This document shows positions 9,706-35,582 of a stretch of DNA of 64,000 bases, piece after piece. The DNA is taken from positions 95,935 through 159,934 of IMG/VR virus record IMGVR_UViG_3300009512_000010. The stretch is one strand, 5' to 3'. Source of the DNA: a virus. The first letter of the stretch is position 1. Each line of letters begins with the position of its first letter. A model generated the notes under the pieces. It was not told the origin of the DNA, made no database searches, and saw nothing but the letters and a program-made list of their open reading frames with translations. The position numbers and the translations under genes were made by a program.

Positions 9706-9713
9706 TATTTATA
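9706..9713 (-). promoter_or_regulatory. T4-type late promoter TATAAATA
   Basis: tatttata on + at 9706-9713, upstream of gp20. Confidence 0.7.
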
Positions 9714-12061: not shown

Positions 12062-12069
12062 TATTTATA
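12062..12069 (-). promoter_or_regulatory. T4-type late promoter TATAAATA
   Basis: tatttata on + at 12062-12069, upstream of gp18. Confidence 0.8.
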
Positions 12070-14035: not shown

Positions 14036-14801
14036 CGCTCGTTATTTCCTCATAATTATAAGTCTTAGTAAATCCGTAGTCAGAATCATACATTGGTATT
14101 ATTGTGGGGGTTGTCGTTGTCGTAAGTACCTTAGTACCCTTTTCGAGTTCGTATTCCATGATAGACTTAGTAATGACTTCGCCATCATCGATTGCACCTG
14201 TGAAGCTAGTCTTAACTTCAAAGTCCATTACATATTGTACTGACTGTCTTTGTTCTTGTTGACCCTCACCCTCATTGACAAACGCCACTGATTGTAGTGT
14301 AATTGGAACATCTTCTTTGATATCTGGATAGTCTTTGTACGGTCTCATAGTCACAGTGTATTGTGGTGCAAAGGTTGGTATGATCTGTTCTACAATTTGT
14401 AGAGCATCATCCTGATTATTTGCATAGATCCCAAGAGAAAATGTTACAATGTAGGGAACTGATTGTTTTACTTTGGCACGTTTACTGTTGTCGTTTACTG
14501 TCGCTTGTTGAAGTCTAGCGTTAGTCTTAGACAACTGTCGTGTCGCATCATATGCCATTGAAGTCATCTCAAAGGTCATGCGTGGCAACTTTATAGCAAC
14601 TGAATCGTCAACACCAAATTCGCCCACCTGTTGTAACCTAAGAAGAAACTTAGATCTAGGAGAGTATGCCAAAGGAACACGAATTGTGCTTAACACTTTG
14701 CCGTTCTTGTCCGTTCTCATTACATGGATCTTTGTAAAGAGCGAACCGAATATAGCTACTGTTTTACGTAGTCTCTCGTGATAAAAGTAATCATTAAACA
14801 T
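14025..14801 (-). CDS. gp15: Tail sheath stabiliser/terminator (gp15-like)
   Basis: YFYHERLRK...FGSLF, VPLAYSP, LPRMTFEM, DALQIVEQIIPTF.P. Confidence 0.93.
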   Translation of the reverse strand: MFNDYFYHERLRKTVAIFGSLFTKIHVMRTDKNGKVLSTIRVPLAYSPRSKFLLRLQQVGEFGVDDSVAIKLPRMTFEMTSMAYDATRQLSKTNARLQQATVNDNSKRAKVKQSVPYIVTFSLGIYANNQDDALQIVEQIIPTFAPQYTVTMRPYKDYPDIKEDVPITLQSVAFVNEGEGQQEQRQSVQYVMDFEVKTSFTGAIDDGEVITKSIMEYELEKGTKVLTTTTTPTIIPMYDSDYGFTKTYNYEEITSDDG

Positions 14802-15613
14802 TAGCTTGAAAGTCCTGTGCTTTTACTGATTTCGCCAAATGGATTGCCTTCACTAAAGTCTAGGAAGTCCTCTATCTCAGTAGCAAATTCGAAGTTCTGT
14901 TGATCTACAGTATCTTTCTGCGTAGAGCTAACAATCTTAGCAGTAGCACCTGAGTTTTGCCCAGTGAGATACTTGCCAGTCGATGGTAGTGCGAATGATC
15001 CCAAGTTGTTTGCCGAACCAACATGAATAAGCGATAAGATTTCGCTACTATCATTGTATGCCGCAACTTCGGCTGTCAAAACACCACCGTCTGATGCGCT
15101 GTCTTGGTTAACATATTCGCCAACAAGAAACGGTTGGAATAGCTGTGGATCTGATATTAGAATAGATGGTGGGGAAGTATAGAAATCTCCACTGTCCACA
15201 ATTGTTATTGAAGTAAGTTTACTAGTAGCACTGTCTAGATTTGGGTATCCAACTGCAATAAAGTCAGTCGCATTCTTACTTGGACCTAAAATCGTAACAG
15301 CAGGTACAGATTGATATCCTTGACCACTATCCGTTAGAGTAACCGAGTTAACTCTTCCGTTTAGAACTGTTGCAGTTGCAGTTGCCGTAGTGCCAACACT
15401 AGATGCAATTGTAATAGTAGGAGTAGATCCATCCTCATAGTAGCTTCCGCCACTATCGATGTTAATTTGGTTAAGACTGCCACTATTCAAAATAGCGATT
15501 AGTCTTGCTGGTTTCTTGGCTGTTGTGGGTGCCGAAAAGGTTATGGAAGGAACTGTTGTGTATAGATCACCACTGTCAGTAAGAGTAATGCTTGTGATAC
15601 CTTGTAATGACAT
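14801..15613 (-). CDS. Probable separated C-terminal part of neck protein gp14 with beta-repeat insert
   Basis: Four ITLTDSG..Y...P..TI-type repeats and a C-terminal DFLDFSEGNPFG typical of gp14 C-termini; TAATG overlap with gp14. Confidence 0.6.
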   Translation of the reverse strand: MSLQGITSITLTDSGDLYTTVPSITFSAPTTAKKPARLIAILNSGSLNQINIDSGGSYYEDGSTPTITIASSVGTTATATATVLNGRVNSVTLTDSGQGYQSVPAVTILGPSKNATDFIAVGYPNLDSATSKLTSITIVDSGDFYTSPPSILISDPQLFQPFLVGEYVNQDSASDGGVLTAEVAAYNDSSEILSLIHVGSANNLGSFALPSTGKYLTGQNSGATAKIVSSTQKDTVDQQNFEFATEIEDFLDFSEGNPFGEISKSTGLSS

Positions 15614-16206
15614 TATGAAATACTCGCTGTTGCTGTTGCGGTCTTACCACGATTAACTTTAATGTCATATCTATAGGCATTATCAATCTCAATTTGATCG
15701 ATATTCGCATTACCTGTATCAATATCTTCGTCATTGTATTCAAACAATTCACAACGGATCTTATATGTTGGTAGGTTGTTTAGCTGATAGAAAGGCTGTT
15801 CGTGCTCAACGTGCACGATCTGAAACAGTTTGCCTGCAAATGGGGTGTAAATAAGATCGCCTTCTGCTGGCCTATCTGTCTTAATCTCGTTATCAAACTT
15901 ACGTACTGTTTGGTTCCAACGCCTTTTGGCTACGACAAGTGTTACACTGTCTCTGATCTCTACACCAAACTTACTGAATAAGTCGCCTTCACCGTCAAAC
16001 CCATCATTGTTCTCCACATACATCTCAAGTCTGTAACTAGAGTTGAATGAGGATACTGGATCTTCTTTAAACACATCATCTACGTTCACTAGATCACGTG
16101 GCATGTAATACATGTCCTGACCATAGATCCGCAATGCTTCGATTGTTAGATCTTCGTAAAGAAGTTGTTCTGACTTATGACCATCTGAAAAGTATAAATT
16201 GCGCAT
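15613..16206 (-). CDS. gp14: Neck protein (gp14-like), N-terminal core
   Basis: EQLLYEDL..EAL.IYG.DMYY.PR, GEGDLFSKFG, RPAEGDLIY, VEHEQPFYQL, CELFEY. Confidence 0.92.
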   Translation of the reverse strand: MRNLYFSDGHKSEQLLYEDLTIEALRIYGQDMYYMPRDLVNVDDVFKEDPVSSFNSSYRLEMYVENNDGFDGEGDLFSKFGVEIRDSVTLVVAKRRWNQTVRKFDNEIKTDRPAEGDLIYTPFAGKLFQIVHVEHEQPFYQLNNLPTYKIRCELFEYNDEDIDTGNANIDQIEIDNAYRYDIKVNRGKTATATASIS

Positions 16207-16207
16207 A

Positions 16208-16960
16208 TTAACCTACAAAGAATTCTACAGGGAGTTCATGCTCTAGTCTCATATCCTCTTCGAGTTTCAATACTTCTGCGTTTGCGGCCTCTAGTATAGC
16301 CAAGCCATTCATCGTCACACCACCAGGCAATTGCATACCTTCAAACTTACTAAGGTTTTGCCCCCATTGTTGCTTGACCAATGCAGTAAAGTATGCCTTA
16401 ACAAACCTGTCGTTATACACTGATGTGTTTGCTACAGGATCTACAAGTTGAGTGCCTTCTACAATAATGTATTGGCCTTCTTTAATATCTTGTGTTTCAA
16501 ACTCGCCATGAATGTATAGCTTACTTTCGTATTGAGAGTAATTAACCTGTGGCATTCCGTTTAGTGTTTGGTCAATCATAGCAATGTGCTGTTGCATCAT
16601 TGTATAATATGCCATGTCTCCCATGAACTTACCCATGACTGCAAGATCGTTCAACCTAAGCTGATAGCCCAAAGAGAACATTCCGCTAGAAGAAGCCCCA
16701 CCATTGATTGGAAGGACTCTTTTCACAAATAGATAGTCGGATGGGATAGGGATATATTTGTTAGTGACATCATCTGCCGTAATAAGATACTTTAGATAGA
16801 CTGTCTTAGTCGCATCAGAATGGTACTCTTGAAAGTATTCAAGAGCTTCGTCCAATCTGTCTTCTACTTGATCCTCATCAACATTAATTTCGAGAACAGG
16901 CTCACCCAATCTTCGCTTTGCATAGTCAATTAATGTCGATCTTGAATTCGGTTTTGCCAT
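16208..16960 (-). CDS. gp13: Neck protein (gp13-like)
   Basis: RRLGEPVLEINVDEDQVEDR, KQQWGQNLSKFEGMQLPGGVTMNG. Confidence 0.95.
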   Translation of the reverse strand: MAKPNSRSTLIDYAKRRLGEPVLEINVDEDQVEDRLDEALEYFQEYHSDATKTVYLKYLITADDVTNKYIPIPSDYLFVKRVLPINGGASSSGMFSLGYQLRLNDLAVMGKFMGDMAYYTMMQQHIAMIDQTLNGMPQVNYSQYESKLYIHGEFETQDIKEGQYIIVEGTQLVDPVANTSVYNDRFVKAYFTALVKQQWGQNLSKFEGMQLPGGVTMNGLAILEAANAEVLKLEEDMRLEHELPVEFFVG

Positions 16961-16991
16961 CTAACTCGTCCCATGTGTAATCCGTTACTTC

Positions 16992-16999
16992 TATTTATA
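16992..16999 (-). promoter_or_regulatory. T4-type late promoter TATAAATA
   Basis: tatttata on + at 16992-16999, upstream of gp13. Confidence 0.8.
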
Positions 17000-18928
17000 C
17001 TAATTTATATCCCCAGGGTAGCGTTGTGTCCACATTGTAAAGCTATATTTCGTTCCCGAAACAAGTTCTGTACACTCATGACCGTGTGTGACCATGCCCG
17101 GAAACAGAATCATCTTACCACAAGGCACATCATCGTTGTTAACACCCTGTCTTGGGTAGATCAAAGACGCACCTTTATAGTCATCATTGAGCTTAACGGA
17201 TCCTGTAACAAGAGAGGCATCATTGTGCAAAGGCAAACTCTTTTGAGTGTCCACCGAATATCGCATAACGAATGCATCACGCATACCATACATTTCAATA
17301 GGGTGCCAAAGCTTCTCTACGATTGGTACGATATGTTCTTTCCAATGGGTTTCTAGCTCATTCCACAATCCTAGTTCTTTGACACGGATCTCATATGCTG
17401 GAAACTTATCTTCTGGCATAGGTGCCCACTTGCCGTGGTTATCACCCATTTCAATCAAACGATCACACTGGCTTTGTGTCATGAAGTCCACAACCATCAT
17501 GTCCTTTTCAAGCATGTCAACCTTACCGTGATGGGGGATGAACATCGGAGACTGTGGAGTTGTTCCTAAAGCGGTTTTAGGTTTAGGCAATGCCTTTGTG
17601 TATTTGGTGTGCACTTGGCTCCATAGGTTATCAAACTTTACTTTAGCCTCAAACCCACCGTTACCATGATATAGACAAGGAACAGTATTCGTGATTGGGT
17701 TCCATAGCTCATTACCTACGTCTACTTCTGGCTCGTGCGTTTGGAAGATATATTGTTCATAGTCCAACCCTACAGAGAATTTAGTAGTATCGTTTAGCCA
17801 GACACGTTGCATGTATAGCTGATCGTCATCATCATCGTTAAGTCGTTCTCCAAAGAAGTCTTTTAATGCACCAACCCTACCAATGTATTGTCCACTGTTG
17901 AGGTATTTGTAATGAAAGAGGTTGGGTTCTGGATGTAGGCTTTGCATGCTCTCGTCAGGCCAACAGCTTGCTTCTGCCCCGAATAGGATCTCTACAGAAG
18001 CGTCCATATACCGTTTAACGATTTCTTGTAGATTATTTGTAAAGAATACGTCATATGCATCTGTGAATAGAAGAATATCGTTTTCGGGCAAGGTGTCGAG
18101 ATAGTCTCGCACCAAGTTAACTTTATGTCCACCACCAGGGCCTTGCATGTCTGTACCAGCCCAATCGACATTAGTGCCCAAGTTCTTAACATCAAATCCC
18201 ATTAGTGCCGCACTGTCATTCAATGCTACACACTTAGATCTATCCGTACCAACCGTAACCGCATGAACATTGAAGTTTTGGAACCAATCGTCATGGCTTT
18301 GTGGCTCAATGTCAGATCCAAGAGCTTCTCTACTAATCTGTGTCGCAATCTCTACTTTGAGTGCTTGTACGTTATGTGTCTTTACCTTCTGAGCCAAGAC
18401 CTCATCTACAGGGATGATCTTTCTGTGGAAACCACTATTAATAAGATCATGCGCCATTTTAACAGTTAGCATATATGCATGACCATTGTATGGATAGCAA
18501 GGCTTAACTAGGTGTTGATTGCCACCTTCTGTGACACCAGTTTCGTTATTCTCGTTGTGACCCAAATATAGTAGATCGATATTATGCTCATCCATCCACT
18601 CGTGGTATTCGTTCTCTTTCCACTTAAATCTGTCGATCTTAACATCATCTTCGAAGATGATTGTAGTCTCGTTTAGTTCAACTACTTTCTGCCACGCCTG
18701 ATAGTGTGATAGGAAGCAACCAACCTCACCCTTTGTAATTCTACGGTTCTTGAATGGATCACGCCATTTGTGATTAACACCAAATTCATTGTCTACCATA
18801 CGTTGGTGATCAATGTCATGACCATCAATAGCAAATACGAATTGATAATCTTCCAACCAACCACATTCACCCATAAAGGATCTTTTTCTGTCAGTTCTTC
18901 GATTTAGATTAATAACTAGCTTGTGCAT
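17000..18928 (-). CDS. Three-domain fusion: GT25 glycosyltransferase + PLOD/LH3-type glycosyltransferase + lysyl-hydroxylase-type Fe/2OG dioxygenase
   Basis: GT25: VINLNRRTDR, AIDG, GEVGCFLSH, IFEDD. PLOD-GT: GGGHKVNL, LFTDAYDV, FGAEASCWPD, YLNSG.YIG, DDDDQLY. LH: FVMRY...LPLHNDAS...LNDDYKG...FPGMVTHGHE...GTKY. Confidence 0.85.
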   Translation of the reverse strand: MHKLVINLNRRTDRKRSFMGECGWLEDYQFVFAIDGHDIDHQRMVDNEFGVNHKWRDPFKNRRITKGEVGCFLSHYQAWQKVVELNETTIIFEDDVKIDRFKWKENEYHEWMDEHNIDLLYLGHNENNETGVTEGGNQHLVKPCYPYNGHAYMLTVKMAHDLINSGFHRKIIPVDEVLAQKVKTHNVQALKVEIATQISREALGSDIEPQSHDDWFQNFNVHAVTVGTDRSKCVALNDSAALMGFDVKNLGTNVDWAGTDMQGPGGGHKVNLVRDYLDTLPENDILLFTDAYDVFFTNNLQEIVKRYMDASVEILFGAEASCWPDESMQSLHPEPNLFHYKYLNSGQYIGRVGALKDFFGERLNDDDDDQLYMQRVWLNDTTKFSVGLDYEQYIFQTHEPEVDVGNELWNPITNTVPCLYHGNGGFEAKVKFDNLWSQVHTKYTKALPKPKTALGTTPQSPMFIPHHGKVDMLEKDMMVVDFMTQSQCDRLIEMGDNHGKWAPMPEDKFPAYEIRVKELGLWNELETHWKEHIVPIVEKLWHPIEMYGMRDAFVMRYSVDTQKSLPLHNDASLVTGSVKLNDDYKGASLIYPRQGVNNDDVPCGKMILFPGMVTHGHECTELVSGTKYSFTMWTQRYPGDIN

Positions 18929-18953: not shown

Positions 18954-19514
18954 TTAGTCTCTGTAGAGATACAAATCAACAGGGACGCAGATCCGTAGTT
19001 CGGAGTAGTAAGGGTTGACGTGGTGATAAGCGAAACTTGGGAAGATCAAGAAGTCTCCTGTCTCAGGTTGATGATGATGTCTGTTAAACATTGGATTGAA
19101 ATATTCGTCATACCCCCGATTGGCATTAGATCTAGGATCGTGTAGCACCAAGTCGCCGCCCGAATTTTGATCTTCTGCTAGTATATAGAACACGCCAGAT
19201 AAGTGTGCTCCCGAATGATTGTGAATAGTCATTGAATAGTCTTTACCGTGACCAGTGATCCAACCCTTTAGCTTGTAGTTGTCCCAATCCTCAATAGAGC
19301 AATCAATAGTACTCTTTAGGTAGTCATTAAAAGCACTCTTAACAGTACTATTAAAGGCACTCATAACAGCACTCTTATCATCCAATATGTTATATCCACC
19401 CAAATCGCTAGGTGGTTCGTTTAGATTGTATGTGCTAAATATATGTTCCACTAAACCAGTGGTGTCGAACTTTCCTTGACCCATCTGTGTAGGCCATAGA
19501 TTATGGATATCCAT
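18954..19514 (-). CDS. Putative Fe(II)/2OG oxygenase (TIGR02466-like)
   Basis: HNHSGAHLSGVFY, LVLHDPR, GDFLIFPSFAYHHV, R near the C-terminus. Confidence 0.8.
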   Translation of the reverse strand: MDIHNLWPTQMGQGKFDTTGLVEHIFSTYNLNEPPSDLGGYNILDDKSAVMSAFNSTVKSAFNDYLKSTIDCSIEDWDNYKLKGWITGHGKDYSMTIHNHSGAHLSGVFYILAEDQNSGGDLVLHDPRSNANRGYDEYFNPMFNRHHHQPETGDFLIFPSFAYHHVNPYYSELRICVPVDLYLYRD

Positions 19515-19624: not shown

Positions 19625-19909
19625 ATGACTATGATGAACACAGTACTTGACCAAATCAATCGTATGGACGCTTCAGAAATCAACCGTGTAGTTGAAGCGA
19701 TCAAATCTCGCCGCAACTCACTGTCTTATGCCACAAACGCTACCTTGCGTGTTGGCGATATTGTCTCTTGGATGCGCCGTGATGGAAGCACTGTAACAGG
19801 ATCTGTTAAGAAAGTTAATCAGAAAACAGTTATAGTAAATGAACGTAATAACCCCAATGTTTGGAAAGTATCTTCAAGCATGCTTACTCCACTGTCTATA
19901 GGTGGATAA
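19625..19909 (+). CDS. Small hypothetical protein with SH3/KOW-like C-terminal half
   Basis: LRVGDIVSW...TGSVKKVNQKTVIV...WKVSSSML; GAGAG SD before the ATG at 19625 (the track starts at 19607). Confidence 0.6.
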   Translation: MTMMNTVLDQINRMDASEINRVVEAIKSRRNSLSYATNATLRVGDIVSWMRRDGSTVTGSVKKVNQKTVIVNERNNPNVWKVSSSMLTPLSIGG

Positions 19910-20373
19910 TGACATTTGACGAATTCTTCGACTTCTTGATGAGTGAAGAATGTTTTAATGACTGTTCGGTCTCCTTTATTAACAATAGAGGAGAACAACA
20001 GTACATAGAGCATGACGATTTATTTGCATATAGGGGCAAGGTGGTTGATCTTTGGTTTAGTGGAGATGATACGATTAAGGTAGAGGGATATGAACGTATC
20101 CAACCTTATGATGGGACTATCCATATATTCTATGCTCCTACAAATGCTCCTTCATTTCCTGTACATACAGATCCTATAGATATCTATATCGAATGCCTTG
20201 ATGGGCGTAAGATAATGGAAATTGACGACCAATACGTGATGATAGAAAAGGGAACGAAGATCTTTATTCCCGCAGACACACCACACGTTGCGCTCAACTC
20301 AGAGAAAGCATTGACATTAAGCTATGGCATTAACGACACAAACACATTCGGTAATCTACGTAAAGACTACTGA
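19909..20373 (+). CDS. JmjC/cupin-4-like Fe/2OG oxygenase
   Basis: FPVHTDPIDIYIECLDGRK...IFIPADTPHVA gives an HxD...H triad; start at MTFDEF by TAATG coupling (the track gives 19861). Confidence 0.7.
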   Translation: MTFDEFFDFLMSEECFNDCSVSFINNRGEQQYIEHDDLFAYRGKVVDLWFSGDDTIKVEGYERIQPYDGTIHIFYAPTNAPSFPVHTDPIDIYIECLDGRKIMEIDDQYVMIEKGTKIFIPADTPHVALNSEKALTLSYGINDTNTFGNLRKDY

Positions 20374-21355
20374 AACTTGTAATCTTAATTGCAGTCACTG
20401 TTTTACTTCTGGTATGAATGGGCGTAAGATCTATTTTGATCACGTGAAGACCGCAAATTGGTGTAACGAACTCGACACTGGCTCTAACCAGATCCATTTA
20501 GAGTACCATGGTGGTGAGCCTATGCTTGCGCCCATGGCACACCTACGAGAATTCCATGACATCACTAAAGCTCAATGGGGTGATCGTGCAACTCATGGTA
20601 TCACAACAAATCTTGTGTTTAAGCTTACCGAAGAGAAACTTGCATTCTTTAGTGAAATCATTACAGGTGGTAACATCGGCACCTCATGGGATCCTAATAT
20701 TCGTTTTACTAACGAACATCAAAGGAAGATGTGGGAAAATAATGTTAAGCAGTTGACAGGACTTGGGCATAGTGTCAAGTGCTTTATCTCTGTATCTAAG
20801 GATGTTATTAAACTACAACCGTTGGAGATTGCTGATTATATGGAGTCTCTTGGTGTTGCTGAGATCTCTTATGAACGACTTACCCATGATGGTAATGCCA
20901 CAATCAATACGGACATCTTTCCTCATAACTCTGAACTAGATGCTTGGTGGATGCTGATGCATGAACAAACTCAAGATCACCCTGTAGAAAACGGCTTTAT
21001 GGGATCCATCTACGACAAGTTCAACAAAGGGCAGTTCCAGATCGGCACATTCTGTCGTGATTGCGAACAAAAGATCCACACTATTAATGCAGACGGTACT
21101 GTCGCAGGCTGTCCTAACACCGCACCAACCATGCATTATGGTCATATAGATACACCAGCAAAGGAAGTAAGATTAAGTCCTAAGCGTATGGAGATCATAT
21201 CTTGTGAACAGCATGAACGTGATGAACGGTGTTACAAATGTCCAGTCTTTATGTATTGCCATTCTGACTGTCATCAGTTACAATGGATGGATGATGTGTG
21301 CCCTGCGCCTAAAACATTGATGATGAAGTTAGCGAAAGAGAAGAAATGGATTTAA
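20324..21355 (+). CDS. Radical SAM/SPASM protein
   Basis: CNLNCSHC, YHGGEPML, C-terminal C..C...GC...CYKCPVFMYCHSDC...C. Confidence 0.9.
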   Translation: MALTTQTHSVIYVKTTETCNLNCSHCFTSGMNGRKIYFDHVKTANWCNELDTGSNQIHLEYHGGEPMLAPMAHLREFHDITKAQWGDRATHGITTNLVFKLTEEKLAFFSEIITGGNIGTSWDPNIRFTNEHQRKMWENNVKQLTGLGHSVKCFISVSKDVIKLQPLEIADYMESLGVAEISYERLTHDGNATINTDIFPHNSELDAWWMLMHEQTQDHPVENGFMGSIYDKFNKGQFQIGTFCRDCEQKIHTINADGTVAGCPNTAPTMHYGHIDTPAKEVRLSPKRMEIISCEQHERDERCYKCPVFMYCHSDCHQLQWMDDVCPAPKTLMMKLAKEKKWI

Positions 21356-22383
21356 TCGTAAAGCCAACCGAAGCGTGTAACTTCAAGTGTACATTTTGCT
21401 CGTCAACAGATATCGATCCCAATGAGGTTGGTCTGTTAGACTTGAGCTATATCTATAGGTTCTTAGAAAGGTTTCCAGAGACTAACACAATTATTGTTAA
21501 TGGTGGTGACCCTCTTATGGTCAAGCCACAGTATTATCAAGATCTAATTGACCACCTTAATGAGCATGATTACCCAGCAAGCATTAGCTTTACGTCCAAC
21601 CTTTGGCCTTTCCTAATGAAACCTAAGAAGTGGTTACCCATCTTTCAGAACGAACGATTTGGTTGTGCCACATCATTTCAGTATGGTGGCGGTAGACTAA
21701 AAGGCGATTATTCAGAGTTCACAGAGGCAGACTTTTGGATGGTGTCTAATGCCATGTTGAAGCATACAGGTGAACGTCCAGATTTTATCGCAGTTATTAC
21801 AGAAGAGAATGAGCATCTCGCCATTAAGAATGTAGAACTAGCAAAAGAGATGGGCGTCGAGTGTAAGTTGAACTATGCTATGGCTTCTGGTGTACAGGGA
21901 TCTACGTATCAATTAAGCAAGATCTACGAAACATATCTTGAGATTTATGACCGTGGTCTAGCCGATCATGAGTTCAACACTAAGCAAATGATGAAACGTC
22001 TTGGGGGATCTTCTACATCATGCCCACAGAATAGAGCGTGTGATGAAGGTATCCGTGCATTTAACCCAGGAGGTGATTACTACTCTTGTGGTTCATTTGC
22101 AGATGATATGGATTATCCTATCGACTTCGAAACTGAGATGGCAGGAAAGTTGCAAACACCACTGCAACACGACCCCAACATTCAGACAATGAAGATGGCT
22201 TGTTACACATGCCCTATGTTTGAAATCTGCAATGGTTGTAAGAAAACTGTGCGTGATATGAAACGTGAAGGTACTGTTGAAGGTCATTGTAGGCAGATGA
22301 AAGCATTGGCACCTCGTATCCTTGCTACCAATAATATGAGTCCTGATGGAGTGACGCCCTATGTCGATGAATCTATCAATTAA
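21346..22383 (+). CDS. Radical SAM/SPASM protein
   Basis: CNFKCTFC, NGGDPL, C-terminal YYSCG...CYTCPMFEICNGC...HC. Confidence 0.9.
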   Translation: MDLIVKPTEACNFKCTFCSSTDIDPNEVGLLDLSYIYRFLERFPETNTIIVNGGDPLMVKPQYYQDLIDHLNEHDYPASISFTSNLWPFLMKPKKWLPIFQNERFGCATSFQYGGGRLKGDYSEFTEADFWMVSNAMLKHTGERPDFIAVITEENEHLAIKNVELAKEMGVECKLNYAMASGVQGSTYQLSKIYETYLEIYDRGLADHEFNTKQMMKRLGGSSTSCPQNRACDEGIRAFNPGGDYYSCGSFADDMDYPIDFETEMAGKLQTPLQHDPNIQTMKMACYTCPMFEICNGCKKTVRDMKREGTVEGHCRQMKALAPRILATNNMSPDGVTPYVDESIN

Positions 22384-23290
22384 CCCAACTTACTATTGTA
22401 ACTTCTCTTGCGACTTTTGTTACTTGACAAAGCAACAGTTAAATGATAGACACAAGATAAACCCAATGTGGTTACAACATTCTATGGGTCAAATAACAGA
22501 TCCTATAACTCATGTTGATTTATATGGCGGTGAGATTGGATTACTAACACCAGAGTATTATTATTCGATCAAAGAGGTGATTAGGAGATACTATGGTGGT
22601 AGTATCCACATCAACACAAATCTGTCAGCATTTCCAGACTTCTTCCGTGATGATGATGTTACCCTATCGGTATCTTATGACTTCCACGCAAGAGAGAAAG
22701 AACAGTTTGTTCTAAATAACATGATGAATGCTAATAAGGATCTTGCTGTCCTTATCCTTGCATCGCCTAAAGTATTGAAGATGGATGTGGAGTTTATGAT
22801 CTTCACTCTTAACATGGTTTCTAATGTCAAGTCGGTAGAGATCAAGCCTTACTCTATCAACCAAGCCAATGCATTTGATGTTACTCATAAAGACTTTGAG
22901 GACTTCGTTATTAGGTTTGATGAGGCTAAGACTAAGAAGAACTTTGACTTCCAAAACATACACAACATTTATAGAAGTATAGATAAAGAGTACAATGCCT
23001 TTTCCAATGACCACGTCTATATCACACCATCTGGTAAGTTTGGCGTATTGGAGTTTGATAAGCATGATAAAGAGTACTTCAAGGAGTATAGCACATATTA
23101 TGAATATAAACAATGGGCAGATAACGAAGCTGTTGATAATCTTAGCGACATTTGTCGTAGCTGTACCTATTTCGGTACATGTCTTACCGAGCACTATCGG
23201 TACGTATTGGATTTAGACAACAGTTGCAATGGATATAAAGGATTACTAGATTACTATGGAAAATTGGAAAGCGAGACAGAAGGCGTATAA
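22361..23290 (+). CDS. Radical SAM protein with C-terminal Cys cluster
   Basis: CNFSCDFC, LYGGEI, CRSCTYFGTC...SC. Confidence 0.88.
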   Translation: MSMNLSINPTYYCNFSCDFCYLTKQQLNDRHKINPMWLQHSMGQITDPITHVDLYGGEIGLLTPEYYYSIKEVIRRYYGGSIHINTNLSAFPDFFRDDDVTLSVSYDFHAREKEQFVLNNMMNANKDLAVLILASPKVLKMDVEFMIFTLNMVSNVKSVEIKPYSINQANAFDVTHKDFEDFVIRFDEAKTKKNFDFQNIHNIYRSIDKEYNAFSNDHVYITPSGKFGVLEFDKHDKEYFKEYSTYYEYKQWADNEAVDNLSDICRSCTYFGTCLTEHYRYVLDLDNSCNGYKGLLDYYGKLESETEGV

Positions 23291-23654
23291 TCATATGACA
23301 ACAAACCACCGTGACGATTTGACGGATGTTGATGTATTGAATAGGCCAGAATTTATTGTAGAAGATGCTTTGATGCACTTCGATAAGAGAGTGGATCAGT
23401 GGATCTACCCAGCGAAGTCGTTCTTCGTTGCAATCTGCTATGCCAATTGGATAGCCGAAGACTTTGGTGAGCAGTTCTATGATGTACTAAACTATAACGA
23501 ATTACTACCAGACGATCCACACTTCCTACCATATGAGAGAAGTAAAGAGATCTATGATGAGATCCTTTCTAAAGTTAATTTTGATAATACTAATGGTATG
23601 GTTCCAGATGTCTATGAGTATTACCAAGAGGAATTCATGATTGGACAACTTTGA
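23256..23654 (+). CDS. Hypothetical protein within radical SAM operon
   Basis: 132-aa acidic ORF overlapping both neighbours; WIYPAKS motif; no family recognised. Confidence 0.7.
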   Translation: MENWKARQKAYNHMTTNHRDDLTDVDVLNRPEFIVEDALMHFDKRVDQWIYPAKSFFVAICYANWIAEDFGEQFYDVLNYNELLPDDPHFLPYERSKEIYDEILSKVNFDNTNGMVPDVYEYYQEEFMIGQL

Positions 23655-24723
23655 CTTCACCAAACAGCTACTGGAATCTAAACGTCCAGACATAGCCGAG
23701 ATTGAGATGACACTCTTTGAGAACTGTCACCTCAACTGTTCTTTTTGTCACCACGACAAGAAGTCTACAGTAGGCTTGTCTCGTGAAGAGATCTTCTCCA
23801 AGATCCCTCTAGTAGAAGAGCATGTTATTAAGATGAAGAACCGTGCAGACGTTATTCAGATCAATATGCTTGGTGGAGAATTGTTTCAAGACCGAATATC
23901 TGAGTGGGCTTATGAGGTCTACTACGACTTCTTAGTTGAGATTAAGAAGATCTATGATGAACATAAGCAGAACATTAAAGTAGTTTGGGTAACATCCTTT
24001 CAGTTTAGTAAACGTGAGAGAGTTCAAAAACTACTTGATGATTTGAATGCAATAGACATTCCATCCTATATTATCTGTTCTTATGACTTTGATGGTAGAC
24101 CTGTCAAAGGACCTTATGGCAAGAACATAGAATACTTTGCTGATTATATCACATCTATTAATATGGTTGCAACCACTATTTCTATTAAAAAGTTTATGGC
24201 AGATGAGGACGAGTACTTTCACTATCTGTATAATAAGTTTGATAACTTCTACTTTGATGATTACATTCCTGATCGTGGTTATGACTATATGATCCCATCA
24301 GATAGTGAGTATCTTGAGTTCCTAAAGTTTGTGTATCATAACTATCCAGACATCAATCCTATCAAGGATCTGATCTATAACGAAACAAATCATATGCATT
24401 GCTTGGCTCTTAACAAGGTTACAATCTTTCCTGATAACTCTACATCAAACTGTAGATGGGATAGATATGACCAACGTGACTTCAACACGAAGTATGAGCC
24501 TAAAGATAATGCTGGTATGATGCAAGCTTATATGGATGAGAATGGTTGCTTGTCATGTAAGTGGTACAACAAGTGTGGCTTTAGATGTTATACACAATGG
24601 GATTGGAAGAACCGTGAACGAGATCTGCCCGACTGTATAATGCGCATGTGGTTTAACTACATGGACAAGACAGGACAAAACCAAATCACAGGATTTGATT
24701 ACGTGGGAACAAACACTCCGTAA
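23641..24723 (+). CDS. Radical SAM protein with SPASM-like C-terminus
   Basis: CHLNCSFC, MLGGELF, HC...NC...CLSCKWYNKCGFRC...DC. Confidence 0.88.
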   Translation: MDNFDFTKQLLESKRPDIAEIEMTLFENCHLNCSFCHHDKKSTVGLSREEIFSKIPLVEEHVIKMKNRADVIQINMLGGELFQDRISEWAYEVYYDFLVEIKKIYDEHKQNIKVVWVTSFQFSKRERVQKLLDDLNAIDIPSYIICSYDFDGRPVKGPYGKNIEYFADYITSINMVATTISIKKFMADEDEYFHYLYNKFDNFYFDDYIPDRGYDYMIPSDSEYLEFLKFVYHNYPDINPIKDLIYNETNHMHCLALNKVTIFPDNSTSNCRWDRYDQRDFNTKYEPKDNAGMMQAYMDENGCLSCKWYNKCGFRCYTQWDWKNRERDLPDCIMRMWFNYMDKTGQNQITGFDYVGTNTP

Positions 24724-25708
24724 CACCGTGATGCTCCATGTAGGATTGCACACCCTTATCGATACACGTCATCATATGAGCACATCCAGAACAACTATCT
24801 GTATTGGCAGTGTATGCTAATTGCGACCCAAAGTTGTCGCTTTTGGCACTTATCCAAGATTCAATATCATTCTCATCATGTACTTTAAACTTGTCTGTGC
24901 CTATCTTAACAATATCGTAGACGAATGGTGTCCAGAAGAAGTTGCCATTACAGTATGTGTAGTTAAGTTCTAAGGATCCGCCCTGTGCTTGATCGATGAT
25001 AGTAGAGGGAAAAGCGTCTTCTGCCCAATCATCTAGCTTCTTCCACTTGTCTATTAGATGTTTCTGTACCTTAAACTTATCCGCTCTAAGAAACGATGGG
25101 TTAAGAGTTAAGATCGTGTCAAACTCATCGTCAGCAATATCTGAGAACTCTATGACTTTGGCATTGGTCTTATCGTCATTACCCATATTCATTACAAGAT
25201 AGTAATTCAGATCGTCATCGAATAGGTTTAGCTTATCGATCATATCTTTGTATCCATGGGGGAACTTTTTAGGATCGATTGCTATGTTAGCATCGTACAT
25301 GAACCCATCTATTTTGGGTATGCTGTTAAGTAATTCGATAACCTCCGTTGAGATGTTGGTTAGAGTCGTCACGAATTGTATAGTAGAAACCTTACTCAAA
25401 CACTCTCGAAATGTTTCATCTCGCAATAACTCTATGACGTTGTTGTTGCCGAATAGATCAGTTGGTCCGATATTGATAGTGGAAACCCTATACCCATTAT
25501 TATTGAACAAGTCAATAGCATTGTTTAATCTTTCGTAGGATCCCATGTTAGTGCCTAGTTTGTTTACAAAACAACCCACACACTTGAACTCACATCCTGA
25601 CAGAACTTCAGCATTGAATATAACCTTGATCTCGTGTCCTTCGTTAAAGGATAGATCAAAGTCTGCATCAGCCTGAGCTTCTTTCTTGTTGTTAGTAACT
25701 ATTCCCAT
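24686..25708 (-). CDS. Radical SAM-like protein, IGPTD family paralogue 5
   Basis: GCEFKCVGCFV, NIGPTDLFG, CSGCAHMMTC...ECL; start MGIVTN at 25708 (the track gives 25741). Confidence 0.8.
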   Translation of the reverse strand: MGIVTNNKKEAQADADFDLSFNEGHEIKVIFNAEVLSGCEFKCVGCFVNKLGTNMGSYERLNNAIDLFNNNGYRVSTINIGPTDLFGNNNVIELLRDETFRECLSKVSTIQFVTTLTNISTEVIELLNSIPKIDGFMYDANIAIDPKKFPHGYKDMIDKLNLFDDDLNYYLVMNMGNDDKTNAKVIEFSDIADDEFDTILTLNPSFLRADKFKVQKHLIDKWKKLDDWAEDAFPSTIIDQAQGGSLELNYTYCNGNFFWTPFVYDIVKIGTDKFKVHDENDIESWISAKSDNFGSQLAYTANTDSCSGCAHMMTCIDKGVQSYMEHHGVTECLFPRNQIL

Positions 25709-26825
25709 GGTAATCCTCGTTATCGAATAGAGCAATAACATCTTTGTTTAATATACATTCAGATCTTCCCTCAAACATCGTATCCATAACTTTGGGTATC
25801 AATCTGTTGGAGCACACGTTGAGGTACTTACACGTTCCGCATTCTTTATTAGAACTATTTATTATCTGATCTGTAACGACTTGGTGTTTGTAATTTAAGA
25901 TACCTTCTACTGTATGTGTAGTGATCTCGAAGTCATCTTTATAGATCTGAGCATTCTCATAGATGAATGGTGACGCATATAGTTTGCCGTTGTGGATGTT
26001 CACCACCGCATAGTGAAATGCTTTGTGAGATAGATCCCCCTGTAAGAAGTGAAACTTGTTCTTAAAACGATTGACATCACTAGACAAGTTTGTCAACATA
26101 TCATTCCAAGCGAATAGTTTGTCTCCATGCTTGGTAGAATGGTTAAAGGATCTGACAACAGAGGGTAAGATTTCAATGACCGTGTCGTAGGTTTCACGTA
26201 TGTAGTCGATAGCTTCGTATAGCCTGTCTTCGATACCCTCTACAATGTTAGTTGCCATAGAGATCTCAAAGTCCAACGAACTCTCTTTGAAGTTCATCAC
26301 TCTGTTTCTCAATGCTTTCCTGTATCTTTTATCATCCAATACACGCACAAGATCTAAAGCAATCTGCACATCCCAAGACTCAACAACCTTACCAAGAGGA
26401 GACTTTTCGATAGCCTTGATCTTACCTAGAATATCATCTTCCGATAGAGACCCCATGATAGAACAGTTATGTTGAATGTTTCTATTACCTTCTGGTATCA
26501 TAGAGATGGCATCAGATAATCTGGCATTGTGTATGATTTCTTCTAGGTTTTCTGCACCATAGAAGTCTGTAGGTCCGATAACAATATCGTCTAACACGAC
26601 ATCAGTTCTACCATGTAATTCGTATGCCAGATTGTGAAACATCTTAATTGACTTGGGATTCCAATTACCTCTACGTTTAACAAAACAACCAGGACACATG
26701 TAAGAGCACCCTTCAAGTAATTCTAAAGTAACTTGGATCTTGTACTGCGTCATTGAGGATACTGAAGTAAACTCTTCTCCCACACCACCGTGCTTAACAA
26801 TGTCTTTCCAACTATTATTTAACAT
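25692..26825 (-). CDS. Radical SAM-like protein, IGPTD family paralogue 4
   Basis: GCSYMCPGCFV, VIGPTDFYG, CGTCKYLNVC...ECI. Confidence 0.8.
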   Translation of the reverse strand: MLNNSWKDIVKHGGVGEEFTSVSSMTQYKIQVTLELLEGCSYMCPGCFVKRRGNWNPKSIKMFHNLAYELHGRTDVVLDDIVIGPTDFYGAENLEEIIHNARLSDAISMIPEGNRNIQHNCSIMGSLSEDDILGKIKAIEKSPLGKVVESWDVQIALDLVRVLDDKRYRKALRNRVMNFKESSLDFEISMATNIVEGIEDRLYEAIDYIRETYDTVIEILPSVVRSFNHSTKHGDKLFAWNDMLTNLSSDVNRFKNKFHFLQGDLSHKAFHYAVVNIHNGKLYASPFIYENAQIYKDDFEITTHTVEGILNYKHQVVTDQIINSSNKECGTCKYLNVCSNRLIPKVMDTMFEGRSECILNKDVIALFDNEDYHGNSY

Positions 26826-28990: not shown

Positions 28991-29732
28991 CTAGAATCAA
29001 CATGAAATCGTCGGGAAAGAATGATACGATCTGATCCGTAATCTTAGTCTCACACATAATATGATAGAGATCTTTGCCGAAATATTTGGGGGAGTCGTTA
29101 AACACTTGTTTATTATATTCAATCGACAATCCGTTTTTACTCAAGATTAGTAGAAGCGCATCATAGCCTGTAGTGAGAAGTCTGGCAATATTAGGTCCAC
29201 ACGTAGCTGGTTTATCAACTACCTTGATGTCTTCAACCAGTTCTTTTAGATTTTTTTCGGTTAGCTTCATATCATCGTCAAGCCCATCGTATAGTTTAGT
29301 TAGGGCAAATGGTACTGAAGATGCAACTGTGGCGATTAAATCGTCAACCAATTGTTCATTATCTTCAATAAACTTATCGATAAGTTTTGGTGGGAACAGA
29401 TATAATAGTTGGCTCTCTTGTTCACCAATGTCATGTCTATATTTGAACTTAATAATAAGAACAATGATCCTAGCCAATAGAGGACAGTCAACCATAAAGT
29501 CTGATTTGATATACGCTTTAATCAAGTCTTCGTCAATAGAAGAGAACGTTGTCTTAAAGTTAGTGTTAGCCAAATAGATGATAATGTGCTGTGCAGACAA
29601 CTTCTCTTTACTCTTAGCATAATCAACCCAAAGAACGTATTCTTCAAGTTCACTCTTGTCTTTATAGATCTGTACTAAGTGTTGAGGAGATAGTGGTAAC
29701 TCATAACACGTACTCTCGTCTGGAGTTGTCAT
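28974..29732 (-). CDS. Hypothetical protein within radical SAM operon
   Basis: Start MTTPDES at 29732 with AAGGA SD (the track gives 29810); helical, no family recognised. Confidence 0.7.
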   Translation of the reverse strand: MTTPDESTCYELPLSPQHLVQIYKDKSELEEYVLWVDYAKSKEKLSAQHIIIYLANTNFKTTFSSIDEDLIKAYIKSDFMVDCPLLARIIVLIIKFKYRHDIGEQESQLLYLFPPKLIDKFIEDNEQLVDDLIATVASSVPFALTKLYDGLDDDMKLTEKNLKELVEDIKVVDKPATCGPNIARLLTTGYDALLLILSKNGLSIEYNKQVFNDSPKYFGKDLYHIMCETKITDQIVSFFPDDFMLILDDNKA

Positions 29733-29745
29733 AATATAGTATTCC

Positions 29746-30849: not shown

Positions 30850-30851
30850 GG

Positions 30852-32030: not shown

Positions 32031-32031
32031 G

Positions 32032-32804: not shown

Positions 32805-33878
32805 TTATACTTTAACCTCAACTAGCCCTTCACCATCCTCTAGTGCCACACCCACAAAGTTCAAGAAGTTCATGCGCATTGCGGCAGTCGTATCAGCTGG
32901 AAGTGCTTTACATTTACCATTATCATCTGCTACTATATAGTCGCCTTTTTGAGCAGTACCATTTATCTTACAAGGGATACGTCCTTTAAGCGCAATGAAA
33001 GGCCATAGAGGATCCTCCATGTTATCTTCATTAACGTTCATTCGAACACCCGGACGTGTAGAGATAATGCCAGCGATAGCCATACCCTTTTTGTATAGAG
33101 TTACCTCTTTTTCGCCACCAACAGCCAACAGATCTCCATGTTCATATCCTCTATCGGCTAAATATTTCTCCGCTAAATCCGACCAGTTTGCAGACGTTGC
33201 TGTACCATTAAATGTACCATCATTAGCAATATATGATGTATCTGTACCATTTCTTCTAAACTGAACAATTCTGTCTGATGATTCGTCTGCAACAATATAC
33301 CATCTATTTGAGTGGTACTGAATTTTACCTTTTGTGCCCGGATCACCTGTCCAGTTAGATGACGCATTGGAGAAAAGACCACCGTTGGTGATATCAAGGT
33401 TACCACCACCGAACTGACCAATCTCACCTTTTTGTCCTTTAGATCCTGTGGCTCCAACTTCTCCCTTTTGTCCTTTTGCTCCAGTTACACCAACTTCGCC
33501 TTTTTGACCTTTTGCTCCAGTTACACCAACTTCGCCTTTTTGACCTTTTTGACCTTTTTCACCAGTAAGTCCAACTTCGCCCTTTTGTCCTTTTTGACCC
33601 TTATCTCCAGTAAGTCCAACTTCACCTTTTTGACCCTTTTGACCTTTAACGCCAACTTCGCCTTTTTGTCCGATCTCGCCTTTTTGACCTTTTGCGCCAG
33701 TGTCTCCAGTCTGTCCTTTTTGTCCTTTTTCGCCCTTTTGTCCCTTTGGGCCAGTTGGAGCATCGGTAAAGGTAGTGGCTCTCCACACACCTTTTGCACT
33801 TTCAAATGTCCACGTGACATTGTTAGCGGTGTGGGTTGCGCCATTCGATGGCGATGATGGGAAATTAATTGCCGCCAT
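32805..33878 (-). CDS. Collagen-like fibre protein with C-terminal chaperone/peptidase G2-like domain
   Basis: N-terminal INFPSSPSNG...WTF module, about 38 Gly-X-Y triplets, C-terminal SDLAEKY...GIISTRPG..MN...ALKGRIPCK...KGDYIV. Confidence 0.8.
   Translation of the reverse strand: MAAINFPSSPSNGATHTANNVTWTFESAKGVWRATTFTDAPTGPKGQKGEKGQKGQTGDTGAKGQKGEIGQKGEVGVKGQKGQKGEVGLTGDKGQKGQKGEVGLTGEKGQKGQKGEVGVTGAKGQKGEVGVTGAKGQKGEVGATGSKGQKGEIGQFGGGNLDITNGGLFSNASSNWTGDPGTKGKIQYHSNRWYIVADESSDRIVQFRRNGTDTSYIANDGTFNGTATSANWSDLAEKYLADRGYEHGDLLAVGGEKEVTLYKKGMAIAGIISTRPGVRMNVNEDNMEDPLWPFIALKGRIPCKINGTAQKGDYIVADDNGKCKALPADTTAAMRMNFLNFVGVALEDGEGLVEVKV
33411..33752 (-). repeat. Gly-X-Y collagen repeat, Lys-rich and Pro-poor
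   Basis: By manual count 22 of 38 triplets are G-X-K (mostly GQK), with a single Pro. Confidence 0.95.
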
Positions 33879-33881: not shown

Positions 33882-35582
33882 TTATGCGCCTCCTGCGCCA
33901 TATAGAGTTTTCAATGCAGTTCCACCTGAGTTGTAAATAACAAAGGATACGACAGATTTTAATTCATTTGAGCCAACAGCATCATCTGCAAGCTTATCTT
34001 GTATTACGGAATTATTTGCTAAATGTTCTGAATCTATGGAATACGCCGCATAGTGTTCGGAGTTAATTGTATCATCAGCAATCTTAGCACCAGTTACGGC
34101 ATCATTAGCAAGTTTAGCTGTAGAAATAGCACCATCAGAAACAACCGAATTATTAAATTGCACCCATTGACTAGATGTACCATCATCGTAGTAGATATAT
34201 AGGGATCCTGTTTCATCGTCCCACCACAAGTCACCGTCTACTGCACTACCTGGTGCTGTGGTGTTTGTAATGGCTTCGTTGCCTTCACCCTTTTGGCCTT
34301 GAGTACCAGTTCCACCCTTTTGACCAACTTCACCCTTTTGGCCTTTGTCACCAGTTTGACCCTTTTGGCCCTTAGTACCAGACGCACCGTTACCATCAGC
34401 ACCAATCTCGCCTTTTTGACCCTTTTGACCCTTGCTTCCAGTTTCGCCCTTTTGACCCTTAGCTCCGTTAGTTCCAGCTTCGCCTTTTTGACCCTTGTCT
34501 CCAGCACCACCAGTAGAACCCTTTACGCCAACTTCACCTTTTTGGCCTTTTGATCCGTTAGCTCCACCTTCGCCTTTTTGACCCTTGGCTCCATCACCAC
34601 CTGCACCACCAGTCTGTCCCTTTTGGCCTTTTTGACCTGCGAGACCTGCGTTGGTAATAGTATGCTTTTCCCATGTGCCAGCGGACACATCGAATACAGG
34701 AATAATATCAGTTCCTACCGCATCAGTACCTGTTGTGAATGCTGTTAAAGCAGATCCAACATTAGCCGCATCTGTGACATCGGCATTAGCTTCCACATTG
34801 TCTAGCTTACCACCGTCCGTCGAAACATCTCTTCCATCAACAGTACCTGTTACAGTAATGTTTCTAATGCCAGAAATGTCACCGCTATCATCTTTCGAGA
34901 TAACCGTACCAGATGTTGGCAAAGTAAGTGCAGTTGTTCCGCCTGTAGTAAGTGTCGTTGCATACGCACCTGATGTCGTAAACGAACCACCGAATGCTAG
35001 GTTGCCCAATGCACTTAATGTTCTATTGGCATTGCCAACATCGAAAGTTAGTGTTCTATCAGCACTTGCATTTACAGAACTGTTAGCGGCAAGTATTAGT
35101 TCATATGAAGCAACAGTATTATCTCTAAGAGAGAATGTGCTAATATCTGTAATAGATCCGCCAATTGCACCAACACCAGTAATGCTTGGTGTTGTAAGTG
35201 TCTTGTTAGTAAAAGTTTCTGTACCAGTAAGTGTTGCAAAGGAATTGCCGCCACTGAGTGCGGCGTTCCACTGACCAATAGTACCAGTCAGTGAGTTGTT
35301 TGTTAGGTTAATACTTTTGTTAGTAAGAGTTTGAGTGCCACTTAATGTAGCCGCAACTGCCGAGTCTAATCTTAGTAAGACATCAGCATCGTTAGTTCCT
35401 GAGTTAAGTACAGTAATGCCAGCATTAGACCCTTTGGGGCCAATGGTGCCAACGAAGTCACCCATCGTGCCAGAGTCCATAGCAATGTTAGTGTCTCTGA
35501 TAATAGCAGTAACTGCCGCAGAGTCAACGAGTGCCTGTAGACCTAGACTGATGTTTAGATGATCACTTAGTTTAACAACCAT
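33882..35582 (-). CDS. Collagen-like fibre protein
   Basis: TLTNKT fibre motifs, about 40 Gly-X-Y triplets, GDLWWD...LYIYYDDG.SSQWV module, AVT..KIADD repeats. Confidence 0.8.
   Translation of the reverse strand: MVVKLSDHLNISLGLQALVDSAAVTAIIRDTNIAMDSGTMGDFVGTIGPKGSNAGITVLNSGTNDADVLLRLDSAVAATLSGTQTLTNKSINLTNNSLTGTIGQWNAALSGGNSFATLTGTETFTNKTLTTPSITGVGAIGGSITDISTFSLRDNTVASYELILAANSSVNASADRTLTFDVGNANRTLSALGNLAFGGSFTTSGAYATTLTTGGTTALTLPTSGTVISKDDSGDISGIRNITVTGTVDGRDVSTDGGKLDNVEANADVTDAANVGSALTAFTTGTDAVGTDIIPVFDVSAGTWEKHTITNAGLAGQKGQKGQTGGAGGDGAKGQKGEGGANGSKGQKGEVGVKGSTGGAGDKGQKGEAGTNGAKGQKGETGSKGQKGQKGEIGADGNGASGTKGQKGQTGDKGQKGEVGQKGGTGTQGQKGEGNEAITNTTAPGSAVDGDLWWDDETGSLYIYYDDGTSSQWVQFNNSVVSDGAISTAKLANDAVTGAKIADDTINSEHYAAYSIDSEHLANNSVIQDKLADDAVGSNELKSVVSFVIYNSGGTALKTLYGAGGA
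34281..34646 (-). repeat. Gly-X-Y collagen repeat, Lys-rich and Pro-free
   Basis: About 40 triplets with one interruption; about 20 are G-X-K. Confidence 0.95.

Follow-up and report, generated by a model that had tools for sequence, protein, structure and literature searches.

Gene Content of the Locus

The DNA analyzed here, a window of 64,000 nt, is part of the 159.9-kb IMG/VR record IMGVR_UViG_3300009512_000010 (record positions 95935-159934), which is assigned to a T4-like myovirus by the tail sheath, the large terminase, the portal, the gp13-type adaptor, gp14, and gp15 that it encodes on its minus strand. The gene under study (17000..18928, minus strand, stop codon included) encodes a protein of 642 amino acids, named P0001, in which three enzyme domains are fused. 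It is a single open reading frame (ORF) with an ATG start and an AAGGA Shine-Dalgarno sequence located 6-7 nt upstream, and its product matches phrog_61 over the full length (E 3e-107). A chance ORF, or an artifact of overlapping plus-strand ORFs (16973-17356 and others), was ruled out by homology that extends over the 642 residues with E values down to 0.

Only two collagen-like ORFs are present in the whole 159.9-kb genome; both lie on the minus strand within the window, and their products are the proposed substrates of P0001. P0122 (357 aa; 32805..33878) has 39 G-X-Y triplets at 33402-33752, 22 of them with Lys at Y, and P0123 (566 aa; 33882..35582) has 40 triplets at 34281-34646, 20 of them with Lys at Y; neither protein has Lys at X. 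Together, they contain 79 triplets with Lys at 42 Y and 0 X positions. According to PHROGs, both proteins are tail-fiber-like.

Domain Architecture and Fold of P0001

The N-terminal domain of P0001 (residues 1-200; 18329..18928, minus strand, as for the other domains) is a glycosyltransferase (GT) of family GT25 that resembles the GT2 domain of COLGALT1. It is followed by a GT domain of the PLOD/LH3 type (residues 220-444; 17597..18271) and, at the C-terminus, by a Fe(II)/2-oxoglutarate (2OG) domain of the lysyl hydroxylase (LH) type (residues 471-642; 17003..17518). All three were recognized by comparison with PDB sequences, by a family profile, and by Foldseek, and the two GT domains also by Pfam. 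Between the last two domains, the alignment with LH3 leaves a linker of ~26 residues (445-470; 17519..17596) in the place of the ~240-residue accessory domain (AC) of LH3, and thus the GT-AC-LH arrangement that is typical of LH3/PLOD enzymes is absent from P0001.

Pfam identified Glyco_transf_25 (PF01755) at residues 2-110 (E 1e-23, 84.4 bits, cut-off 24) and GT_PLOD (PF25342) at residues 220-444 (E 1e-45, 156 bits, cut-off 27). When the protein was compared with the PDB by phmmer, the GT domain of LH3 aligned with residues 224-430 and its LH domain with a separate stretch, residues 476-631 (E 1e-7/1e-8), while the catalytic GT2 domain of COLGALT1 aligned with residues 5-194 (E 5e-19); further matches were the mimivirus proteins R699 and R655 and the LH domain of mimivirus L230. 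A family profile built on 44 members found the same proteins at much lower E values, i.e., LH3 (1e-53), R699 (2e-41), COLGALT1 (5e-32), R655 (4e-13), and the L230 LH domain (9e-11). Beyond these collagen enzymes, the only PDB entries below 1e-3 with this profile were bacterial GT25 galactosyltransferases, and no other 2OG oxygenase was found.

The AlphaFold2 model of P0001 has a mean predicted local distance difference test (pLDDT) score of 89.2 and a predicted template modeling (pTM) score of 0.86, with the lowest confidence at the linker (pLDDT 59-79). With Foldseek, the central domain superimposed on the GT domain of LH3 (6wfv) with a template modeling (TM) score of 0.83 and a root-mean-square deviation (rmsd) of 2.3 A, and on R699 with an rmsd of 1.7-2.0 A. 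The N-terminal domain superimposed on COLGALT1 with an rmsd of 3.4-3.9 A, and the C-terminal domain on the LH domain of L230 with a TM score of 0.75 and an rmsd of 2.3 A, the next-best oxygenases being prolyl hydroxylases from Bacillus (TM ~0.55). The sequence, profile, and fold matches of the three domains are almost exclusively enzymes that modify collagen lysines. A first-pass annotation made from the letters alone had proposed this fusion of GT25, PLOD/LH3-type GT, and lysyl-hydroxylase-type domains in 642 aa, and Pfam, the PDB comparisons, and AlphaFold2/Foldseek bear it out.

Conservation of the Active Sites

The conservation of the catalytic residues was analyzed in an alignment of 120 full-length homologues that share 46-99% identity. 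In the GT25 domain, the triplet E93-D94-D95 is invariant (120/120) and aligns with the FEDD sequence of COLGALT1, where EDD is the unusual Mn2+-binding motif that defines the catalytic site (PMC12003778); C71, H75, P173, and D175 are invariant too. In the PLOD-type GT domain, the invariant residues are W256 (W75 in LH3), D290 and D293 (D112 and D115), E319, N344, D368-D369-Q370 (D190-D191-Q192), and H421 (H253). W323 (W145 in LH3) is either W or Y, and W148 of LH3 is not kept, the corresponding position E326 being variable. The acidic motif that the first-pass annotation had cited in this domain is real and reads DDDDDQLY (residues 365-372, preceded by N364), aligning with D187-D191 and Q192 of LH3. 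The Fe(II) triad of the hydroxylase, H568, D570, and H617 (H667, D669, and H719 in LH3), is equally invariant. Since all the metal- and donor-binding residues are invariant in the 120 homologues, the three active sites appear to be under selection. In addition, Val613 (Val in 119/120) occupies the position of L873 of L230, the conserved Leu of a tail-to-tail dimer that is needed for activity on collagen.

Linkage of the Enzyme to Collagen-Like Fiber Genes

The linkage between the enzyme and collagen genes was analyzed in 80 IMG/VR loci, taking as a collagen ORF any ORF with at least 10 triplets, and as informative those loci with at least 5 kb upstream of the enzyme and with no Oxy5 or cupin neighbor. 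In all 27 informative loci, which correspond to 14/14 clusters at 90% identity and to 8/8 at 70%, a collagen ORF lies upstream of the enzyme in the same orientation. Downstream of the enzyme, the 80 loci contained no collagen ORF in 513 kb. In the clade of the window, clusters coding for K-G-Q-K-G were located 13-15.5 kb upstream and on the strand of the enzyme in 5/5 whole records, and a reversed-pattern control gave 0-1. The collagen loci were sought by means of degenerate DNA patterns; a tblastn search with a collagen segment against 50,697 phage records was empty owing to low-complexity masking.

The same association was observed in cultured phages. In the Roseobacter phage CRP-6, which has 45 kb and is built differently, an interval of 377 bp with a single small gene lies between the enzyme and a "tail fiber protein" that has 99 triplets and the motif GAKGQKGEVG. 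In the Synechococcus phages S-PRM1, S-CAM9, and S-8S55, a fiber of 1,466-1,831 aa with 55-59 Lys-rich triplets is followed first by a small ORF, then by a pair of small 2OG oxygenases, and finally by the enzyme. The association of the homologues with Lys-rich collagen genes across phages had been set beforehand as a test of the proposal, and they proved to be tied to such genes in the 27 loci, in the five clade records, and in four cultured species.

The association was also analyzed in the reverse direction, starting from contigs recovered with the pattern G-x-K-G-Q-K-G-E-x-G, 28 of which had at least 4 kb downstream. About half of these 28 collagen loci contain the enzyme, compared with a background frequency of 506 in 2.9 million contigs, and several of the others encode a two-domain GT25+LH protein or a split pair.

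Position of Lysine in the Collagen Triplets

The collagens linked to the enzyme, i.e., 41 distinct ORFs with 3,961 triplets, have Lys at 1,327 Y positions (33.5%) and at no X position; a few of them were located through a Lys-containing motif, which does not affect the count at X. For comparison, 79 loci of random viral collagens sampled with a Gly-only pattern contain 4,754 triplets, with Lys at 208 Y (4.4%) and at 86 X positions (1.8%), and the three-domain enzyme was found in none of these 79 loci.

Distribution and Variants of the Family

The family is large and virus-specific. It comprises 990 clusters at 90% identity with E values below 1e-5, the best 120 of which are all 609-645 aa long and share the same architecture, and it is carried by 506 IMG/VR contigs (background of 2.9 million contigs). 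In a library clustered at 50% identity, 4,084 clusters have related domains with E values up to 1e-3 and 197 with E values up to 1e-30. Among prokaryotes, searched as one genome for each of 185,579 species, merely four matches were found, all in short contigs (2.5-4.9 kb) from metagenome-assembled genomes (MAGs) and in a Prochlorococcus single-cell contig, and a prophage or cellular origin was ruled out on this ground.

The cultured phages that encode a member are the Synechococcus phages S-PRM1, S-CAM9, and S-8S53/55/56 and the Roseobacter phage CRP-6. These members are currently annotated as "2OG-Fe(II) oxygenase" or as hypothetical, PHROGs describes phrog_61 as "2OG-Fe(II) oxygenase", and NCBIfam has no model for the family. 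S-PRM1 gp162, S-CAM9 gp218, S-8S55 WLW37668, and CRP-6 gp58 are full-length members that share 42-46% identity with P0001. The GT25 N-terminus of CRP-6 gp58 (L001 33029-34798) is shorter, with 34 instead of 54 residues before the conserved block, and it has EED in the place of EDD.

Some relatives have a different composition. In P0124 (942 aa), the three-domain body is preceded by ~315 additional N-terminal residues that contain a second GT25 match, and in P0135 (875 aa) a class-I methyltransferase (TylF-like) is fused before GT25 and the PLOD-type GT. Five records (G006, G027, G032, G033, and G034) encode a two-domain GT25+LH ORF of 473-820 aa without the PLOD-type GT, and G028 encodes GT25 and LH in two separate ORFs; all six carry collagen genes with the motif GxKGQKGExG, and they were reached from the loci L093, L152, L112, L102, L109, and L162. 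To judge from these gene models, the hydroxylase-glycosyltransferase system is modular, with three-domain, two-domain, and split forms. Apart from phages, the linkage recurs in a giant-virus MAG contig (L107, 1-2435), where a collagen ORF of 145 triplets, in which Lys occupies 59% of the Y positions, adjoins a GT25-like match with 31% identity to residues 1-123 of P0001.

Neighboring Genes

The gene located 25 bp upstream of the enzyme encodes a small 2OG-Fe(II) oxygenase, Oxy5 (18954..19514, minus strand; PF13759, TIGR02466-like, phrog_81), a conserved neighbor that lies directly 5' of the enzyme in 20 loci of the clade of the window. The pair of small oxygenases of S-PRM1, S-CAM9, and S-8S55 (L002 18839-20004, L218 10839-12004, and L219 10824-12004) occupies the same place. 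Since the fibers of these three cyanophages are rich in G-P-T triplets, with Pro at X, the small 2OG oxygenases beside the enzyme may be further fiber hydroxylases.

Directly downstream of the enzyme, there is a gene for a gp13-type head-tail adaptor (16208..16960, minus strand), which follows the enzyme in 43/80 related loci. The adjacent gp14-type head-closure gene seems to be split into two ORFs (14801-15613 and 15613-16206, minus strand), both matching phrog_460: in one, residues 4-193 correspond to positions 18-209 of phrog_460, and in the other, residues 72-267 correspond to positions 214-382. The sequence TATAAATA, which matches the T4-type late promoter consensus, is located between the stop codon of the enzyme and gp13 (16992..16999, minus strand). 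The window contains 14 copies of TATAAATA where 4.4 would be expected. These copies (e.g., 12062-12069, 9706-9713, 16992-16999, and 43144-43151) are mostly on the minus strand, and most of them lie in short gaps just 5' of structural genes. The excess suggests T4-like late transcription in a divergent marine myovirus. A 10-kb part of the window gave no megablast match against cultured phages, and the closest relative of the tail sheath, that of Phage C48C1, shares merely 47% identity.

The collagen genes are separated from the Oxy5-enzyme-gp13 block by a ~13-kb cassette (19861-32804) with a cupin, nine radical S-adenosylmethionine (rSAM)/SPASM-like genes, and two 128-aa proteins; it seems to have been inserted into what was previously a collagen-enzyme-gp13 order. 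Outside the window, at record positions 74885-76732 (L217 886-2733), there are two adjacent genes that encode a short-chain dehydrogenase/reductase (SDR) nucleotide-sugar epimerase/dehydratase and a protein similar to nucleoside diphosphate (NDP)-sugar (UDP-glucose-6-) dehydrogenases. The SDR epimerase scores equally for GalE and for heptose epimerase, below both cut-offs. The phage may tailor its own sugar donors.

Proposed Function and Alternative Explanations

We propose, with a probability of about 0.75, that P0001 hydroxylates and glycosylates the Y-position lysines of the collagen fibers of the phage itself, a reading supported by comparative genomics. P0001 would be a cytoplasmic phage-made enzyme acting on P0122 and P0123 before or during their trimerization. 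In G-X-K-G repeats, whose typical form is G-[AS]-K-G-Q-K-G-E-[VI]-G, the C-terminal Fe(II)/2OG domain would hydroxylate the Lys at Y. GT25 at the N-terminus, whose EDD Mn2+ site resembles those of COLGALT1 GT2 and L230, would then use a UDP-sugar to attach one hexose to the hydroxyl group so formed, and the central PLOD-type GT, with DxxD and poly-Asp motifs like those of LH3 and R699, would add a second sugar. The product would be a fiber decorated with glycosyl-glycosyl-hydroxylysine. That the three domains are active, in which order they act, which sugars they add, and what the decoration does are all inferred. The decoration would likely serve either to stabilize or solubilize a hydroxyproline-free triple helix or to shape the contact between fiber and host.

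Several observations weigh against this proposal. The oxygenase is not recognized by Pfam above threshold, its 2OG-FeII_Oxy_3 match (residues 565-634, E 0.015) reaching 16.7 bits with a cut-off of 27. Furthermore, the PLOD-defining Arg that binds the C5 carboxylate of 2OG (R729 in LH3 and R887 in L230) is absent, being replaced by Lys627 in 120/120 homologues. Collagen prolyl 4-hydroxylase employs a Lys at the 2OG-binding position, and Lys627, which keeps a basic side chain, plausibly keeps the 2OG-binding function. In the window, the enzyme lies 14 kb away from the collagen genes located upstream; this gap can be interpreted as a lineage-specific insertion, because the same spacing of 13-15.5 kb is present in 5/5 related records. 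No perfect TATAAATA precedes the enzyme or its upstream neighbor Oxy5, the nearest copy being past the stop codon of the enzyme.

The Lys bias has its own exceptions. Lys at Y reaches at least 15% in 11/79 random collagen loci that have no enzyme nearby, and the enzyme is absent from the 8/8 searched records of these 11 loci, most of which are fragments. In hydroxyproline-free collagens, a Y-position Lys with Glu or Asp at the following X is a known stabilizing pattern, and therefore, the restriction of Lys to Y does not on its own prove modification; we consider that, as an indication that the collagen lysines are modified, the bias is suggestive rather than decisive. Neither do conserved GT motifs guarantee activity, given that LH1 and LH2 retain the PLOD GT domain with little GT activity (discussed in PMC13382579). 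As to the sugars, the GT25 domain of mimivirus L230 adds Glc and not Gal (PMC9614988), and genes for an SDR epimerase and an NDP-sugar dehydrogenase are present in the phage itself. The phage GT25 might use UDP-Gal, like COLGALT1, or UDP-Glc, like L230, and we are much less confident about the exact disaccharide on the fiber lysines, i.e., Gal and then Glc, than about the modification itself.

A more modest version of the proposal is that the collagen fibers are modified with fewer than three activities, either because one GT is structural or because both GTs add the same single sugar, so that the product would be hydroxylysine or a monosaccharide on hydroxylysine. It is in agreement with the observations that L230 yielded only glucosyl-hydroxylysine in vitro (PMC9614988), that many phages have two-domain GT25+LH enzymes beside the same kind of collagen, and that non-catalytic GT-A domains are common in collagen-glycosylation enzymes (PMC12003778), the GT1 domain of COLGALT1 and the accessory domain of LH3 being structural. 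We regard it as unlikely, considering that both GT domains retain all their metal- and donor-binding residues in the 120 homologues, down to 46% identity, and that the central domain is closest to the LH3 GT and to R699, which are proven glucosyltransferases of galactosyl-hydroxylysine (PMC9546862). Another possibility departs from collagen altogether and follows the usual annotation style for such phage genes: P0001 would be an auxiliary enzyme that modifies the host surface, its GTs remodeling lipo-oligosaccharide or O-antigen, e.g., to block superinfection, and its oxygenase having nucleic acid or some small molecule as its substrate. Homologues are indeed named [quoted passage not shown] (LPS, lipopolysaccharide) and "2OG-Fe(II) oxygenase", bacterial GT25 beta-1,4-galactosyltransferases are distant PDB matches (E 7e-10), phage GTs have been taken as O-chain/LPS modifiers in the pelagimyophage literature (PMC7029224), and Iyer et al. 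took the dioxygenase arrays of cyanophages as enzymes of secondary metabolism (PMC2938197). Nevertheless, the best matches are collagen enzymes, with COLGALT1 at 5e-32 against 7e-10 for the bacterial GT25, LH3 at 1e-53, and R699 at 2e-41, and a role in surface modification leaves without explanation the upstream collagen gene in 27/27 loci, the restriction of Lys to Y, and the position in the virion-morphogenesis block, which makes it very unlikely.

We consider still less probable, with hardly any chance of being correct, that the substrate is a different one, such as another protein of the virion or of the host, modified at its lysines, or the small (Cys-His-x-Ser)x3-RGRR proteins encoded in the rSAM cassette, and that the linkage to collagen merely reflects a shared hypervariable fiber region. 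It is true that the nearest neighbors in the window are Oxy5 and the rSAM cassette and not the collagen genes, and that 2OG lysyl hydroxylases of the JmjC and other types modify non-collagen proteins (PMC2938197). But the LH domain of P0001 is PLOD/L230-like and not JmjC-like, and most members of the family have no rSAM cassette and yet always have a collagen gene. Moreover, the cassette resembles an insertion into the older collagen-enzyme-gp13 order, and the 513 kb downstream of the enzyme contained zero collagen ORFs. Modification of the collagen lysines of the fibers by P0001 is thus the explanation that we prefer.

Significance

The collagen literature ties the O-glycosylation of hydroxylysine to the rise of animal basement membranes (e.g., PMC13382579), and mimivirus is so far the lone non-animal case. 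In the literature, we found the hydroxylation and glycosylation of collagen Lys described only for animals and giant viruses, and no paper that assigns a collagen-modifying role to any phage protein, including phrog_61 and the cyanophage members; Iyer et al. (2010) had proposed the hydroxylation of bacterial collagen-like proteins (PMC2938197). The family described here is abundant in marine phages and locked to collagen-like fiber genes whose lysines are found only where lysyl hydroxylase acts. A broader and tentative idea, which may well turn out to be wrong, is that many marine tailed phages, including cyanophages, roseophages, and pelagiphage-like myoviruses, carry glycosylated hydroxylysine on their virions, made by modular LH/GT fusions, and that this phage pool has a common origin with, or is the source of, the LH, COLGALT, and PLOD-GT modules found in animals and giant viruses.

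If the proposed function is true, phage auxiliary genes annotated as "LPS glycosyltransferase" and "2OG oxygenase" would need a different reading, and a post-translational layer would be added to the fibers by which phages recognize their hosts. It would also provide a compact polypeptide of the bacterial cytoplasm with which E. coli could make recombinant collagen that bears both hydroxyl groups and sugars, a production named as an unmet need in the mimivirus papers (PMC9546862). The cultured carriers CRP-6, S-PRM1, S-CAM9, and S-8S55 make the idea directly testable.

Comparison with Known Collagen-Modifying Systems

The first-pass annotation had compared P0001 with LH3 and COLGALT1 and with mimivirus L230, and both the profile and the structure comparisons agree with this analogy. 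P0001 and the two human enzymes (LH3/PLOD3, 6fxk; COLGALT1/GLT25D1, 9evj) share the same three catalytic modules and the same metal motifs (EDD; DxxD, poly-Asp, and His; HxD...H), as well as the substrate logic, i.e., Lys at Y of G-X-K-G. The phage protein differs from them in being one polypeptide instead of two, with the order GT25, PLOD-type GT, and LH and with 16-28% identity, and in having neither the LH3 accessory domain nor the GT1 scaffold domain of COLGALT1, nor a signal peptide or an endoplasmic reticulum retention signal. Human LH3 and COLGALT1 form a non-covalent physical complex (PDB 8zgc, PMC11897130), of which the phage fusion would be the covalent equivalent.

Mimivirus L230 has an N-terminal GT25 and a C-terminal LH domain and has been described as a bifunctional enzyme that makes hydroxylysine and glucosyl-hydroxylysine on viral collagen, its substrates being the Lys-rich, Pro-poor collagen-like proteins of the virus itself (PMC9614988, PMC5802723). 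P0001 resembles it as a viral polypeptide that joins an N-terminal GT25 with EDD to a C-terminal PLOD-type LH, in a genome with Lys-rich collagen-like genes. However, the phage protein is smaller (642 versus 895 aa), has no middle region of the size of an accessory domain, carries Lys instead of Arg at the 2OG site, shares ~20% identity with the LH domain of L230 (PDB 6ax6 and 9nev), and comes from tailed phages of bacteria and not from a giant virus of amoebae. The linkage between enzyme and collagen genes is also far tighter in phages than reported for mimivirus. In this virus, R699 (PDB 9dyt), a separate PLOD-type collagen galactosylhydroxylysyl glucosyltransferase (PMC9546862, PMC12279948), resembles the central domain of P0001, and the GT25-like R655 (PDB 9crz) resembles its N-terminal domain; these are separate proteins, whereas their phage counterparts are fused together and to the hydroxylase.

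The earlier claim of a pathway contained in one polypeptide stands as far as the three modules in one protein are concerned, but the arrangement is less unique than was implied. Four metagenomic proteins of ~900-936 aa (P0175, P0178, P0181, and P0183) join GT25 to a complete LH3-like GT-AC-LH body, and their LH domains score 181-193 bits against that of L230 (6ax6). Because these ~900-aa relatives of L230 already carry the full body, the three-module fusion very probably exists in the L230 lineage as well, with a PLOD-type GT that the consulted papers on L230 do not mention, and P0001 is best described, as far as its sequence tells, as a compact phage variant of the known L230/LH3-COLGALT type of viral enzyme.

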